60,271 nt of DNA, taken from positions 1 to 60,271 of IMG/VR virus record IMGVR_UViG_3300008261_000124. The stretch is one strand, 5' to 3'. This stretch comes from a virus (lineage: Duplodnaviria; Caudoviricetes). The translations under genes were made by a program, and so were the position numbers. Positions 1,150-33,016 of this stretch are shown in pieces (the stretch's first letter is position 1; each line of letters begins with the position of its first letter). A model generated the notes under the pieces. That model was given only the letters and a program-made list of their open reading frames with translations, had not been told where the DNA came from and made no database searches.

Positions 1150-1277
1150 AGTCAGGTGGCGGAATTGGTAGACGCATAGTTCTTTATGGTGGATGAAGTT
1201 AAGGTACTTCAGAAATTTTAATCGCAACCATAAACATACTAAAAATCCTTTACAGGTTCGAATCCTTGTCCTGACTA
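1150..1277 (+). ncRNA. tRNA-like element 1 (Leu-type D arm, anticodon arm replaced by an extended insert)
   Basis: Acceptor AGTCAGG/CCTGACT+A; D arm TGGCGGAATTGGTAGACGC; T arm ACAGG-TTCGAAT-CCTTGT; 128 nt; no canonical anticodon arm. Confidence 0.75.
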
Positions 1278-1292
1278 CTAAAAATAAAAGTT

Positions 1293-1433
1293 ATGTTAGA
1301 ATTACATGATGGAAACTTAAGTTGTAATTATACAAAAGTTATTTACCGAGGTAAAGAATTTCCAGCACCAGTAGATATTGTAGTACTGTTAGCATGGGAT
1401 CATATAATATGTTTATTACAAACAAGTAAATAA
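1293..1433 (+). CDS. small hypothetical protein (46 aa) inside the RNA array
   Basis: ATG..TAA open frame MLELHDGNLSCNYTKV..., A-rich leader; fills the gap between tRNA-like elements 1 and 2. Confidence 0.5.
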   Translation: MLELHDGNLSCNYTKVIYRGKEFPAPVDIVVLLAWDHIICLLQTSK

Positions 1434-1436
1434 AAT

Positions 1437-1554
1437 AGTCAGGTGACAGAATTGGTGTCAAAGTATAAATCAAAGGGCAGAACACAAAGTCACTGAACAT
1501 AGAGGAGAGGCTGAGGAACTCCCATTACTTACAGGTTCATCCCTGTCCTGACTA
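1437..1554 (+). ncRNA. tRNA-like element 2
   Basis: Acceptor AGTCAGG/CCTGACT+A; D-like hairpin TGACA-GAATTGG-TGTCA; T arm ACAGG-TTCATC-CCTGT; different insert closed by AAGTA/TACTT. Confidence 0.7.
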
Positions 1555-1573
1555 CGAGAGGAAATAATCTTAA

Positions 1574-1667
1574 TCAGCCTCAATATGACTAATCACTTAC
1601 TATGTATAGTATAGGTGAAAAATCACACGTGAAAGATGATAAGGTTGACAAACGGGGAAAGACCCGT
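1574..1667 (+). ncRNA. structured element ending in TTGAC plus a GAAAGA-loop hairpin (copy 1)
   Basis: TCAGCCT (1574-1580) pairs with AGGTTGA (1642-1648); then ACGGG-GAAAGA-CCCGT (1652-1667). Confidence 0.5.
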
Positions 1668-1671
1668 ACAT

Positions 1672-1811
1672 AATCAGGTGGTATTAGAATACCTTTGGTA
1701 ATATGAAGCTGCAGTGAAGTATTACATGGTAACTCAAATAAGGAGTAATTACCTTATGTAAGTTAATAAAGGAATCATCCTTTGGTACAGGGGCAGAACC
1801 TGTCCTGATTA
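1672..1811 (+). ncRNA. tRNA-like element 3
   Basis: Acceptor AATCAGG/CCTGATT+A (compensatory change versus elements 1 and 2); D-like GGTATT/AATACC; T arm ACAGG-GGCAGAA-CCTGT. Confidence 0.7.
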
Positions 1812-24982: not shown

Positions 24983-27326
24983 CAAAATTAGCATGAACTC
25001 TGAAGAGTTAAAATCATTATTAACATACATTCATAACAATAATAAAGTATTGTTAGAGAAGAACTTACCTGTACAGACTGTAAATGTAGAAGGTGAAGCA
25101 GGTGGTGGTAAGACTTCTACTATTCTTCAACTAGCTAATGAGTTAGGATTGGATATGATACGTAAGAACCTCGCGGAGCTTGAAGATGTGGCAGATCTTA
25201 TCGGGTTTCCGTGCAAGGAGCATGAGATGATTGGTAAAGACAACTCTGTTAGATGGGTTGTAGAAGGTACTATGCCTCAGTATATTCAAGCAGGTTATAA
25301 ACCAACCGGTGAAAAGAGAATGACACATGCTGCTCCAGATTGGGCACAGGGTAGAGTTGCTCCCGTTCTATTGTTATTAGATGATTATAGTCGTTAAATT
25401 AAATTTACTAGATTTTTATTATCTAGCACTAAAATTAGTATATTTGTAATAAATATTTATTATGAATAAACTATTTAATTCAAAATTAACAAGTTATAAA
25501 AATAAATCAGGTGTATATCTATTAAAGATAAAAGAAAATTATTATGTTGGTAGTTCTATTAATCTTATAAAGAGATTAGAAAGTCACAAAAGTAAATTAA
25601 AATTATTAAAACATGAAAATATATACATACAAAGATGTTTTAATAAGTATGGTAAAAAAGAATGTTTTTTCTCAATACTTGAATTTTGTGAACCGGATAT
25701 AAGACTGATAAAAGAACAATTTTGGATTAATACCTTAAATCCAAAACTAAATCTTAAACCAAATTGTTTAACTCAACAAAACTGTATTACTACTTCTAAA
25801 CCTGTATTTCAATATTCTCTTAATGGAGAATTTATTGCAGAATTTCCATCAGTCAGAGAAGCTGAAAGAATTCTTGGTATTTCAGGTATAGGAAATGTAG
25901 CTAGAAAAGTAAAATCTTATTTTAAATCTGTAGGAGGTTTTTTATGGGATTATGAAAAAAAAACAAATCTTAGTTATACAAATAACAGTAAGAAAGCTAA
26001 AATAAAAGCAGTTACTATGTATAATAAGGAAGGTATAAAGATTAAAAGTTTTGAATCAATAGCAGATGCAGCAAGATATATATTAAAACCAGAAGATAAT
26101 TTTGATGGTTTATGTGCATGTATATCGAGTGTAGCTAAAAATAAAGGTATTTTAGTAAAAGATAAATATAGATATTCTTATGATAATTTAGAATTTCTTA
26201 AACCTTTGGTACTTAAAAGAAATTATCCCATATTGCAATGTGATACATCAGGAAATATTATTAAAGAATGGGAATCAGCTATTATAGCTGCTGAATCTTT
26301 AAATATATCAACAGGTGCAATTAGATTAGCATTAAAAGGAAAAATAAAATTATGTAAGAATTCTATATGGAAAATCAAGATGTAGCGTCTATTAAAAAAT
26401 CCTGTGAATTGTCTGGAAAAGCATAGAAATATGCCAATCAGCAGCCAAGCTGTTTAGTAATAAACAGAAGGTTCAACGACTAGTGTATGGAATATAGTCT
26501 GAACTGCAAATATAAAAGACTAAATTGCAGAATCTAAGGATAAAGAGCCTTAGAGATAACAAAAATGGCATCAGAAAAGTTTATTCAAGCGACCATGACT
26601 CTCCTGGAAACACAATGTTATGGTAGCTGGTGTTTACCAAAAGGTTCATTAATTGTTCTTACCTCAAATCCTGATAATGGCAACTATTCTGTTAGTGCAT
26701 TGGATGGAGCTCAAAAGACTAGGGTTATTAATGTAAACTATAAGTTTGATGTTAATGTATGGGCAAGATATGCAGAGAAAACTGGTATTGATGGTCGTTG
26801 TGTAAACTTCTTGTTATTACACCCAGAGTTAATGGAAGGTGAGAATGTTAATGCTAGAACTGTAACTATGTTCTTTAATAGTTTAATGTCTATCAAGAAT
26901 TTTGCAGATGAGTTACCTCTTATTCAGCAGTTAGGTGAGGCATGTACTAATCCAGAGCTTACTACTTTGTTTACTACATTTATCAATAACAAGTTGGATA
27001 AGTTAGTTACTCCTAAAGATATGTTACTTCATGACAATGAATCTTATATTATAGGTGAACTAAACAGTTGTATTGGTAAAGATGGAAACTATCGTGCAGA
27101 TATTGCTAGTGTATTAGCAACAAGGTTGATTAACTTTACTTGTACTTATTCTGATAATAACTCAATAACTCAAAAGATTACTGACAGACTTATCAAATTC
27201 TCTACAGAAGATATATTTACTACTGACCTTAAATATATTATTGTAAAACAAATACTTAACTATAACAAGCAGAAGTTCCAAAAACTTATGCTTAATCCTG
27301 AAGTATTAAAGATGACTATGAAATAA
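24966..27326 (+). CDS. MoxR-like AAA+ ATPase, two exons 24966-25394 and 26568-27326
   Basis: Walker A GEAGGGKT; Walker B LLLDDYSR joined to ASEKFIQA; sensor LTSNP. Confidence 0.85.
25395..26567 (+). mobile_element. group I intron with a homing endonuclease gene in the P1 loop (core appears truncated)
   Basis: Exon UAGUCGU pairs with GCGUCUA at 26385-26391; P10 GAUGU/GCAUC; P, Q and P7 elements at 26400-26500; terminal G at 26567; reading frame restored. Confidence 0.85.
25462..26385 (+). CDS. GIY-YIG homing endonuclease with three NUMOD1-like repeats
   Basis: SGVY..YVGSS..RLESH; repeats KPVFQYSLNGEFIAEFPS, KAVTMYNKEG..FES, PILQCDTSG..WES; TATATTTG box at 25439-25446. Confidence 0.9.
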   Translation: MNKLFNSKLTSYKNKSGVYLLKIKENYYVGSSINLIKRLESHKSKLKLLKHENIYIQRCFNKYGKKECFFSILEFCEPDIRLIKEQFWINTLNPKLNLKPNCLTQQNCITTSKPVFQYSLNGEFIAEFPSVREAERILGISGIGNVARKVKSYFKSVGGFLWDYEKKTNLSYTNNSKKAKIKAVTMYNKEGIKIKSFESIADAARYILKPEDNFDGLCACISSVAKNKGILVKDKYRYSYDNLEFLKPLVLKRNYPILQCDTSGNIIKEWESAIIAAESLNISTGAIRLALKGKIKLCKNSIWKIKM

Positions 27327-32383: not shown

Positions 32384-33016
32384 ATGAAAGCTGACATAAA
32401 ACATAAAAATCTATCTGGTATTTACATGATTAGAAACCTAATAAATAATAAAGTTTATATAGGTAAATCTTTAAATATATATGCTAGAATAATTGAGCAT
32501 ACTTATAAATTAAATAAAGGATTATCTGATAGTTCTCATTTACAAAGTTCATGGTTAAAACATGGTTCAAAAAACTTTGACTATTCAATATTAGAAATAA
32601 TTAAAGATACAGATGAAATTGCTAGAAGAGAATTATTTTGGATGCATGCTTTAAAAACTTTAGATAAAAATTATGGTTATAACTTAAGATCTGATAGTGA
32701 TTCTGAAATGATAGTTCATGAATCTACAAGAAAAAAAATATCTAATAGACTTAAGAAAGAATGGGCTAAAGGTATAAGAAAAGATCACGGAAAAAAACTT
32801 TCAGCTAATTGGAAAATAAATCCAGGTAGAGTTCAATTACAATCTAAAGTAATGTCTAAAGTATTAACTAAATATGAATATGTAATAAATGGTAGAAAGC
32901 TTAATTATAAAAGATTAAAAAGATGCGGTTTAAAAAATGTTATAGCAACTTTTTATAAACAAAATAGTAATAAAGTAATTTTTAAAGGTATAGTAATAGA
33001 AAGAATAAAAACATGA
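32384..33016 (+). CDS. free-standing GIY-YIG homing endonuclease inside the polB locus
   Basis: SGIYMIRNLINNKVYIGKS..R..H, E..W, GYN; TATATTTG box at 32372-32379. Confidence 0.9.
   Translation: MKADIKHKNLSGIYMIRNLINNKVYIGKSLNIYARIIEHTYKLNKGLSDSSHLQSSWLKHGSKNFDYSILEIIKDTDEIARRELFWMHALKTLDKNYGYNLRSDSDSEMIVHESTRKKISNRLKKEWAKGIRKDHGKKLSANWKINPGRVQLQSKVMSKVLTKYEYVINGRKLNYKRLKRCGLKNVIATFYKQNSNKVIFKGIVIERIKT

Follow-up and report, generated by a model that had tools for sequence, protein, structure and literature searches.

What are the three tRNA-like elements that follow one another near the start of the virus record IMGVR_UViG_3300008261_000124, each with a long unrelated insert where a tRNA has its anticodon? 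The record, a member of the Caudoviricetes in the IMG/VR database, is estimated to be about 50% complete, has a GC content of about 29%, and was analysed as one stretch of 60,271 bp, which is called the window here. The first 1.95 kb of the window has no long open reading frame (ORF) and houses the array. A preliminary description, made from the sequence alone, had noticed three tRNA-like shells with inserts of roughly 70-95 nucleotides (nt), and had proposed that they are either tRNA scaffolds displaying or releasing cargo RNAs or decoys for anticodon nucleases and other tRNA-sensing defences. We find by comparison of sequence and covariation that the three elements belong to a large RNA family that is restricted to phages and derived from leucine tRNA. 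We consider it rather probable that these are scaffold RNAs, matured like tRNAs, that present variable cargo, act as punctuation within transcripts, and provide handles for recombination.

Three members of one RNA family in the window

A covariance model, R1, was built from 112 elements of other phages, with the copies of the window left out. In the window, R1 recovered exactly three intervals, all on the + strand, and they coincide with the three shells of the preliminary description. The next best match, within a coding region, reached 16.7 bits, and about 8 bits were obtained for the copies on the reverse strand. The three copies consist of the following parts.

1150-1277, + strand: shell copy 1, near-canonical (R1 70.8 bits, E = 2.8e-17; weak Rfam tRNA match, 18.6 bits)
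1150-1156 paired with 1270-1276, + strand: acceptor stem of copy 1, AGTCAGG/CCTGACT
1159-1175, + strand: leucine-type D arm of copy 1, GCGGAATTGGTAGACGC
1176-1251, + strand: cargo of copy 1, 76 nt
1252-1269, + strand: T arm of copy 1, ACAGG-TTCGAAT-CCTTGT, with one bulged T
1277, + strand: discriminator A of copy 1
1437-1554, + strand: shell copy 2 (R1 45.5 bits, E = 3e-10), with cargo homologues elsewhere
1437-1443 paired with 1547-1553, + strand: acceptor stem of copy 2, as in copy 1
1445-1459, + strand: D arm of copy 2, GACA-GAATTGG-TGTC
1460-1530, + strand: cargo of copy 2, 71 nt
1531-1546, + strand: T arm of copy 2, ACAGG-TTCATC-CCTGT, with a 6-nt loop
1554, + strand: discriminator A of copy 2
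1672-1811, + strand: shell copy 3, of a variant class (R1 32.6 bits, E = 1.2e-6; fold z-score -2.9)
1672-1678 paired with 1804-1810, + strand: acceptor stem of copy 3, AATCAGG/CCTGATT
1680-1693, + strand: D arm of copy 3, GGTAT-TAGA-ATACC, loop without GG
1694-1786, + strand: cargo of copy 3, 93 nt with three hairpins
1787-1803, + strand: T arm of copy 3, ACAGG-GGCAGAA-CCTGT, loop GGCAGAA
1811, + strand: discriminator A of copy 3

These parts bear out the shared frame that had been described, namely a common acceptor stem, a discriminator A, an ACAGG T stem, and D stems that differ but still pair. The acceptor stems of copies 1 and 2 are exactly that of the family (AGUCAGG/CCUGACU), and copy 3 has the covarying AAUCAGG/CCUGAUU, in which G2-C71 is changed in a compensatory manner to A2-U71. 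The canonical anticodon arm (5-bp stem, 7-nt loop, U33) is replaced in all copies by 76, 71, and 93 nt of other structure, in agreement with the first estimate of insert length. None of the three copies encodes CCA, as had also been noted. The discriminator, A73, is followed by CTA, CGA, and CTG in copies 1, 2, and 3, i.e. all three have A73 and C74, and the base at position -1 is T, T, and A, respectively.

Copy 1 has the complete set of A14, A15, G18G19, and the T loop TTCRANY. Copy 2 keeps the D loop GAATTGG and has TTCATC as its T loop, and copy 3 is without both the D-loop GG and TTCRANY. An alternative T loop of the GGYRGTA type is coupled with a D loop lacking GG in five out of five such members of the family, and copy 3 fits this class. 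The expectation that tRNA finders would make a pseudogene call or none was correct: ARAGORN found no tRNA and no tmRNA in the window, and Rfam gave no match in the window at the gathering score. Below that score, copy 1 reached the 18.6 bits listed above with the tRNA family (RF00005), for which the cut-off is 29, and copies 2 and 3 were not listed. Ordinary phage tRNAs also receive 30-55 bits with R1, so that weak shells are not separated from tRNAs by this score; copies 2 and 3 are therefore placed in the family with the additional support of their acceptor sequence and of cargo homologues in canonical shells of other phages.

The frame is conserved across phages

Further members were collected by scanning IMG/VR with the acceptor ends at gaps of 35-65, 66-94, and 95-125 nt, and with the D and T arms alone; each of these scans gave at least about 120 contigs. 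The family, its structure, and its pattern of conservation were observed directly in this material, as were the bracketing of ORFs and the replacement of cargo described below. The acceptor-anchored elements number at least 493 when only unique ones are counted and are 55-163 nt long, with inserts of about 20-130 nt whose lengths are continuous. Among 113 unique elements anchored by the D and T arms only, all seven acceptor pairs are formed in 101, and the acceptor AGUCAGG is present in about 64% (72/113). The other 41 have variant acceptors in 33 combinations, several of them with completely changed stems, e.g. TCCATAG/CTATGGA. In an alignment called A1, from which 4 of the 41 variant-acceptor rows were left out because they had fewer than six pairs, 97.3% of the cells pair as compared with 27-41% when the partners are slid, and 64 cells are changed on both sides, values that were reached by none of 500 shuffles and are inflated by the choice of rows, parts of which were fixed by the search pattern. 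G-U pairs are tolerated in A1 on one strand.

Conservation is also seen at positions outside the search pattern. In the 493 elements, A14 is present in 460, A15 in 454, the D-loop GG in 447, the T loop TTCRANY in 467, and a T before the T stem in 400. At the flanking positions, A73 is found in 467/495, C74 in 484/495, and U at -1 in 414/495 elements, with CCA encoded in 11/495. The view that there is selection on RNA structure, with constant frames and variable inserts laid out in arrays, holds over hundreds of phage contigs.

The elements are found within clusters of phage tRNA genes and have the same orientation as these, with more than ten elements at some loci. ARAGORN names a few members as tRNA-Leu or another tRNA. 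The exact 25-nt T arm plus acceptor was found in only 14 contigs among 185,579 species genomes, all of them contigs of metagenome-assembled genomes (MAGs). When the window region and two family members were compared by blastn with 50,697 cultured phage records, there was either no match or a short generic tRNA match, and none of these records covers 80% or more of an element. In Rfam searches of the window and 19 loci at the gathering score, the best 150 of 192 matches were all to tRNA, apart from one tmRNA and one freshwater-1 RNA.

The surroundings of the array were compared in five relatives of the window, found through a neighbouring 123-amino acid (aa) protein. None of the five has ordinary tRNAs at this place; such tRNAs instead of shells would have spoken against the preliminary description. 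Two of the five carry shells there with other acceptors (AGUGAGG and CACGGAG), and one pair is set apart by an additional hairpin in the D loop. A TAnnTTTG box, the Bacteroidota-type promoter motif, stands 2-8 nt before position +1 in its exact form in 29/513 shells compared with 3/888 tRNAs; none of the three window copies has one.

Several additional observations were made on family loci, which are numbered here with L for other phage loci compared. The freshwater-1 RNA (RF02979, 73.2 bits, cut-off 72) is at L095 6127-6189 on the - strand in a phage tRNA and shell cluster, outside any shell and about 460 nt from a shell of the copy 3 type. The phage-encoded tmRNA (RF00023, 53.3 bits) is at L020 4975-5349 on the - strand, in a cluster that also contains tRNAs and shells. 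L447 3327-3480 and L448 3350-3480, which are closely related, contain the same shell and cargo, and one of the two has about 23 nt extra in the D loop, which follow GGAA and precede the 3' half of the arm. D-loop inserts also occur in about ten family members, e.g. L046, L054, L070, L096, and L111.

The frame has the features of leucine tRNA

The D arm of the family, GGCGGAAUUGGUAGACGC, belongs to the tRNA-Leu type, and the true tRNA-Leu genes that occur in these phage clusters have D arms similar to it and different acceptor stems. A shell-carrying Chitinophagia MAG encodes a tRNA-Leu(CAA) that shares the D arm of the shells and has the T arm GCAGGTTCGATTCCTGT. This combination of D and T arms in tRNA-Leu(CAA) was present in 4/121 sampled genomes of the phylum and in 5/81 of the order, the sampling being within these groups only, and all four genomes of the phylum sample recur in the order sample.

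According to a published study, bacterial leucyl-tRNA synthetase (LeuRS) reads A73 and a core of U8-A14, G18-U55, and G19-C56, in E. coli also A15-U48, and the anticodon arm is dispensable for aminoacylation by this enzyme (PMC2377443). Copy 1 has the sequence features of this set, as do 91-95% of the family. Because the conserved part of the shell is the published recognition set of LeuRS, leucylation is plausible, and the shells may be leucylated.

The inserts are exchanged as units

The inserts of the 493 elements fall into 364 cargo clusters, of which 283 are singletons. When the folding of 272 representatives was compared with that of shuffled sequences, the mean z-score was -0.80, with 40% below -1 and 15% below -2. 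Compensatory changes were found within cargo families. In pairs of elements that have the same cargo at different loci, the cargo is about 80% or more conserved, and flank similarity is absent in 214/241. Conversely, of 109 pairs with matching 120-nt flanks on either side, 45 have unrelated cargo inside identical shells, and one site has at least five different inserts. By these comparisons, the inserts are conserved and exchanged as units, and the shell ends are likely to be the crossover points for the exchange of cargo. The frequent replacement at fixed sites suggests that cargo could have host-specific or arms-race functions.

The cargos of the window take part in this pattern to different degrees. 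The copy 1 cargo has no homologue among the other phage loci compared. Homologues of the copy 2 cargo, 85-87% identical, are in canonical shells at L143, L180, L181, L215, L033, and L084. The copy 3 cargo has homologues at L020 and L095, again in canonical shells and with compensatory changes. In the copy 3 cargo, a start codon and a stop codon come after AAGGAG, while the copy 1 cargo contains an 11-codon ORF; neither of these is common to the family at large. The preliminary description had included neither the replacement of cargo at orthologous sites nor the leucine identity of the frame, nor an ORF that fits exactly between copies 1 and 2.

A mini-gene between two shells and a terminator-like end

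The features between and after the shells are the following.

1278-1292, + strand: leader of 15 nt from the end of shell 1 to the mini-gene start codon, A-rich, without Shine-Dalgarno motif
1293-1433, + strand: ORF of 46 aa, beginning 15 nt after shell 1 (lead) and ending 3 nt before shell 2 (trail)
1555-1671, + strand: spacer between shells 2 and 3, without ORF, with the small hairpin ACGGGGAAAGACCCGT and a sigma-70-like hexamer pair, a consensus match that alone is not evidence of function
1812-1945, + strand: downstream unit directly after copy 3, in which a variable middle separates the T-arm-like hairpin GTGGTTCGAGTCCAC from an intrinsic-terminator-like hairpin (1920-1937) with a T run

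The 46-aa ORF has three homologues with 83-89% identity. One of these has an N-terminal extension that reads through the T arm and acceptor of a canonical shell, which indicates that a shell precedes the mini-gene there too. A tblastn search with the 46-aa ORF against the family loci compared gave no match.

Placement of ORFs next to shells is also seen in the family. The start of an ORF of 40 codons or more lies 10-25 nt downstream of 108/451 shells and of 93/912 tRNAs at the same loci. The lengths of the leaders in 153 units of shell plus ORF have a peak at 14-16 nt (65/153) with a mode of 15, as in the window, and the leaders are A-rich without a Shine-Dalgarno motif, which is typical of Bacteroidota. 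A single ORF fills 36/140 of the gaps between shells, with a lead of 13-23 nt and a trail of -2 to +9 nt.

The downstream unit is conserved, with one homologue at L112 10756-10890. There too, the unit comes after a shell, and its terminator stem shows a compensatory change. A 28-mer from the 5' part of the unit was found in IMG/VR only at L112 besides the window. From these sequence features, the unit at 1812-1945 is likely to be the end of a transcription unit of non-coding RNA.

The rest of the window

Up to about 33.5 kb, the + strand carries replication and repair genes, as recognised by PHROGs and Pfam scans that covered 30 of the 78 listed ORFs. Replication, repair, and homing-endonuclease genes were the only ones recognised among these 30. 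The - strand has giant ORFs of 1738, 3531, and 1862 aa, and we take this layout of genes to be crAss-like. Two ORFs resembling GIY-YIG homing endonucleases are within the replication module at 25462-26385 and 32384-33016; the second comes after a 331-aa ORF with merely a weak match to family B DNA polymerase. Upstream of the array, the region 300-1147 is without a long ORF, has a GC content above that of the rest of the window, and has no Rfam match. At the start of the record, low-complexity runs rich in TATA and TCTC are present at 1-130 and 400-480. When sequencing runs were compared with the record through sampled words, freshwater and lake runs were listed, and one metatranscriptome contains 0.22 of the words, a share that is not evidence of expression or habitat.

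Proposed maturation and role of the shells

How could such elements work? In the scheme that we favour, the starting point is that the shells keep the acceptor stem, the leucine-type D arm, the T arm, the elbow nucleotides, A73, and C74, and have unrelated folded cargo in place of the anticodon and variable arms. The + strand would be transcribed with the shells and the mini-gene together, up to the terminator at about 1945. The host tRNA machinery would then excise the shells, with RNase P acting at the 5' side, where U is found at -1, and with trimming of the 3' end and completion of CCA after A73-C74. The products would be stable L-shaped RNAs that display the cargo. The same cuts would release the flanking short mRNA, so that the shells would also serve as punctuation. 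At the level of DNA, the constant ends could act as homology arms through which cargo is traded between phages.

Transcription, processing, charging, and action in trans are what we infer from the sequences. The proposal of the preliminary description that the shells are processed scaffolds displaying cargo stands as the best reading to the extent that signals of the maturation type are kept, with the processing step itself a prediction.

A number of points speak against this scheme. Besides the inflated pair counts of A1 and the overlap of the R1 scores with those of ordinary tRNAs, the cargo folds only modestly better than shuffles, and a terminal closing helix is predicted in just 12% of the 272 representatives. 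The excess of ORFs next to shells is partial (24% vs 10%). No partner protein was seen among the 30/78 window ORFs scanned with PHROGs and Pfam. Copies 2 and 3 have altered or degraded T loops, copy 3 also having lost the D-loop GG, and they may be poorer substrates or may be decaying. A further point concerns complementarity of the inserts to phage genes, which the preliminary description had suggested looking for. The longest complementary runs between cargo and window are 10-12 nt, as compared with means of 11.7-12.7 nt for shuffled cargos; complementarity is not beyond chance, and a role of the cargo as antisense RNA to phage genes was rejected for this half of the genome.

Going further, we can imagine that freshwater Bacteroidota phages keep a shared, recombining library of structured RNAs, small and numbering in the hundreds, that are built on one leucine-tRNA frame, matured by the host, CCA-tailed, and possibly leucylated. 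The inserts would then be effector RNAs, for instance binders resembling aptamers, or mimics, directed against host defence or translation factors, and would be swapped during co-infection via the shell ends, so that the library would be an RNA counterpart of accessory-gene cassettes. We offer this picture tentatively, as one that could be true and that we rather doubt.

Alternative explanations

By weight, the rivals of the scaffold scheme rank in the order of processing signals, DNA-level sites, decoys for factors that read the top half of a tRNA, and pseudogenes or intron-bearing tRNAs. The first holds that the shells are phage 't-elements', mainly processing signals for cutting polycistronic transcripts, and that the inserts are tolerated, self-folding filler. 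We regard it as unlikely, although it would explain why shells enclose ORFs closely with leads and trails of set length, why the maturation signals are conserved, and why the stability of the cargo is just modestly above that of shuffles. Many shells are arranged in tandem without an intervening ORF; the listed gaps of 99 nt or less hold an ORF of at most 16 codons, and the spacer between copies 2 and 3 has none. A shell of 55-70 nt would suffice for cutting, yet inserts reach about 130 nt. Moreover, filler does not account for cargo that stays conserved where the flanks can no longer be aligned, in the 214/241 pairs mentioned above, and that is replaced whole rather than eroded.

The second rival takes the elements to be chiefly portable sites of homology or recombination in DNA that shuffle small gene and RNA cassettes, with the likeness to tRNA reflecting origin only. 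Integron attC sites and the repeated promoter stem-loops of T4-type phages would be the comparison. The constant ends around a middle that varies in sequence and length, the unrelated cargo at matched sites (45/109 pairs), the bracketed ORFs, and the GIY-YIG homing endonuclease genes of the window all fit with it. DNA sites, however, have no need of the unpaired nucleotides of tRNA tertiary structure (A14, A15, G18G19, TTCRANY, A73, and C74), which are kept in 81-98%. Nor does this explanation agree with the tolerance of G-U pairs on one strand only, or with an orientation that is always that of the neighbouring tRNAs. No integrase was found among the 30/78 window ORFs scanned, in a record that is about half complete. 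As a complete account, this is improbable in our judgement; a DNA-level role is compatible with the scaffold scheme as a second role of the shells.

Could the shell itself be the active part? The elements would then be decoys or sponges for factors that read the top half of a tRNA, such as defence nucleases or toxins directed at the acceptor, T arm, or elbow, or LeuRS, EF-Tu, or the CCA-adding enzyme. AGUCAGG is conserved beyond the needs of pairing in the D/T-anchored elements (72/113), and the sequences of the D and T arms are common to the shell and to the tRNA-Leu(CAA) of some genomes of the Chitinophagia order. We nevertheless give this explanation very little credence, as it leaves the conserved and exchanged cargo unexplained and no link of the shells to any defence system is seen in the present data. 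The specific form in the preliminary description, decoys for anticodon nucleases, is excluded because there is no conserved anticodon loop; the acceptor, D arm, T arm, and elbow are conserved instead.

That the elements are decaying tRNA-Leu pseudogenes, or intron-bearing tRNA-Leu genes spliced into working tRNAs, is the least credible explanation of all: the leucine-type D arm, the few members that ARAGORN names tRNA-Leu or other tRNAs, and the imperfect T loops of copies 2 and 3 are outweighed by hundreds of copies with covarying stems, by inserts that are not flanked by a conserved anticodon stem-loop in the element lists read and are continuous in length, by the lack of a match to a group I intron or another Rfam family (in the window even at E up to 10), and by true tRNA-Leu genes with other acceptor stems in the same clusters. 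A tRNA-Leu with a group I intron was rejected separately for the window, where the inserts are 71-93 nt long, such introns being about 200 nt or more, and no Rfam intron matches.

Comparison with known RNAs

In the literature, we found no description of the shell family. A survey of viral structured RNAs refers, in the portions consulted, to tRNA-like candidates in IMG/VR in general terms only, and its supplementary tables may list some members (PMC10690425). A 2026 preprint on bacterial tRNA mimics deals with other motifs in the part that was available.

The closest likeness is to stable RNAs of well-studied phages. RNA1 (144 nt) and RNA2 (125 nt) of phage T5 are annotated in NC_005859 as 'tRNA-like stable RNA with unknown functions' and lie, like the shells, in a phage tRNA cluster. 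Their fold is also that of the shells, with an acceptor stem, a D-type hairpin, extra hairpins, and a T arm. RNA1 has a leucine-type D arm, GCCGGAAUUGGUAGACGG, and the T arm of RNA2, GCAGGUUCGAAUCCUGU, is near-identical to that of the shell family. The acceptors of both differ from those of the shells, and their R1 scores of 29.8 and 30.2 bits are no better than those of ordinary T5 tRNAs (tRNA-Lys, 42.1). In phage T4, rnaC (species 1 RNA, 139 nt) and rnaD (species 2) are stable RNAs annotated without function inside the tRNA cluster. T4 rnaC resembles the shells in its paired ends and its canonical T arm, CCGGGUUCGAAUCCCGG, and has two long hairpins for the D and anticodon arms; unlike the shells, it has no leucine-type D arm and scores 17.5 bits with R1, and rnaD has no clear shell. 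RNA1 and RNA2 of T5 and rnaC of T4 share the architecture of the shells, a likeness by architecture with R1 scores within or below the range of ordinary tRNAs. We know of no family of hundreds with exchangeable inserts for the T5-type RNAs.

tmRNA and the bacterial Y-RNA-like YrlA also join a tRNA-like module of acceptor and T arm to a domain that is not a tRNA, as the shells do. tmRNA differs in that the shells have no G3-U70 (position 3-70 is U-A), no family-wide tag reading frame, and no set of pseudoknots, and a tmRNA identity was rejected for the window, where neither ARAGORN nor Rfam gives one. In YrlA, the ends of the RNA are at the other end of the fold.

The logic of the shells is known from systems that are man-made, eukaryotic, or organellar. 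In the engineered 'tRNA scaffold', the anticodon arm is replaced by cargo, and RNase P and 3' enzymes excise a stable RNA. In plant mitochondrial t-elements, mitochondrial tRNA punctuation, and mascRNA, tRNA-like folds set the ends of neighbouring mRNAs. To our knowledge, none of these is a phage family with a fixed leucine frame and hundreds of natural inserts. The shells would be a natural precedent for the engineered scaffold, and they offer a large pool of uncharacterised phage RNA domains.

The tRNA-like stable RNAs of T4 and T5 have been annotated for decades without a function, and the shell family indicates that RNAs of this kind can be organised as a modular system of very large size. 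In it, hundreds of exchangeable inserts are combined with a single fixed frame, in which precisely those parts of tRNA-Leu are retained that processing enzymes and LeuRS read. Because the frame predicts the ends of the RNA, the addition of CCA, and possible leucylation, the old question becomes testable, and the sites at which cargo has been swapped provide natural controls with the same context and different cargo. Taken together, tRNA-like stable RNAs of phages are already known from T5 and T4; what is new in the shells is the scale, the fixed leucine frame, and the cassette-like exchange of inserts.

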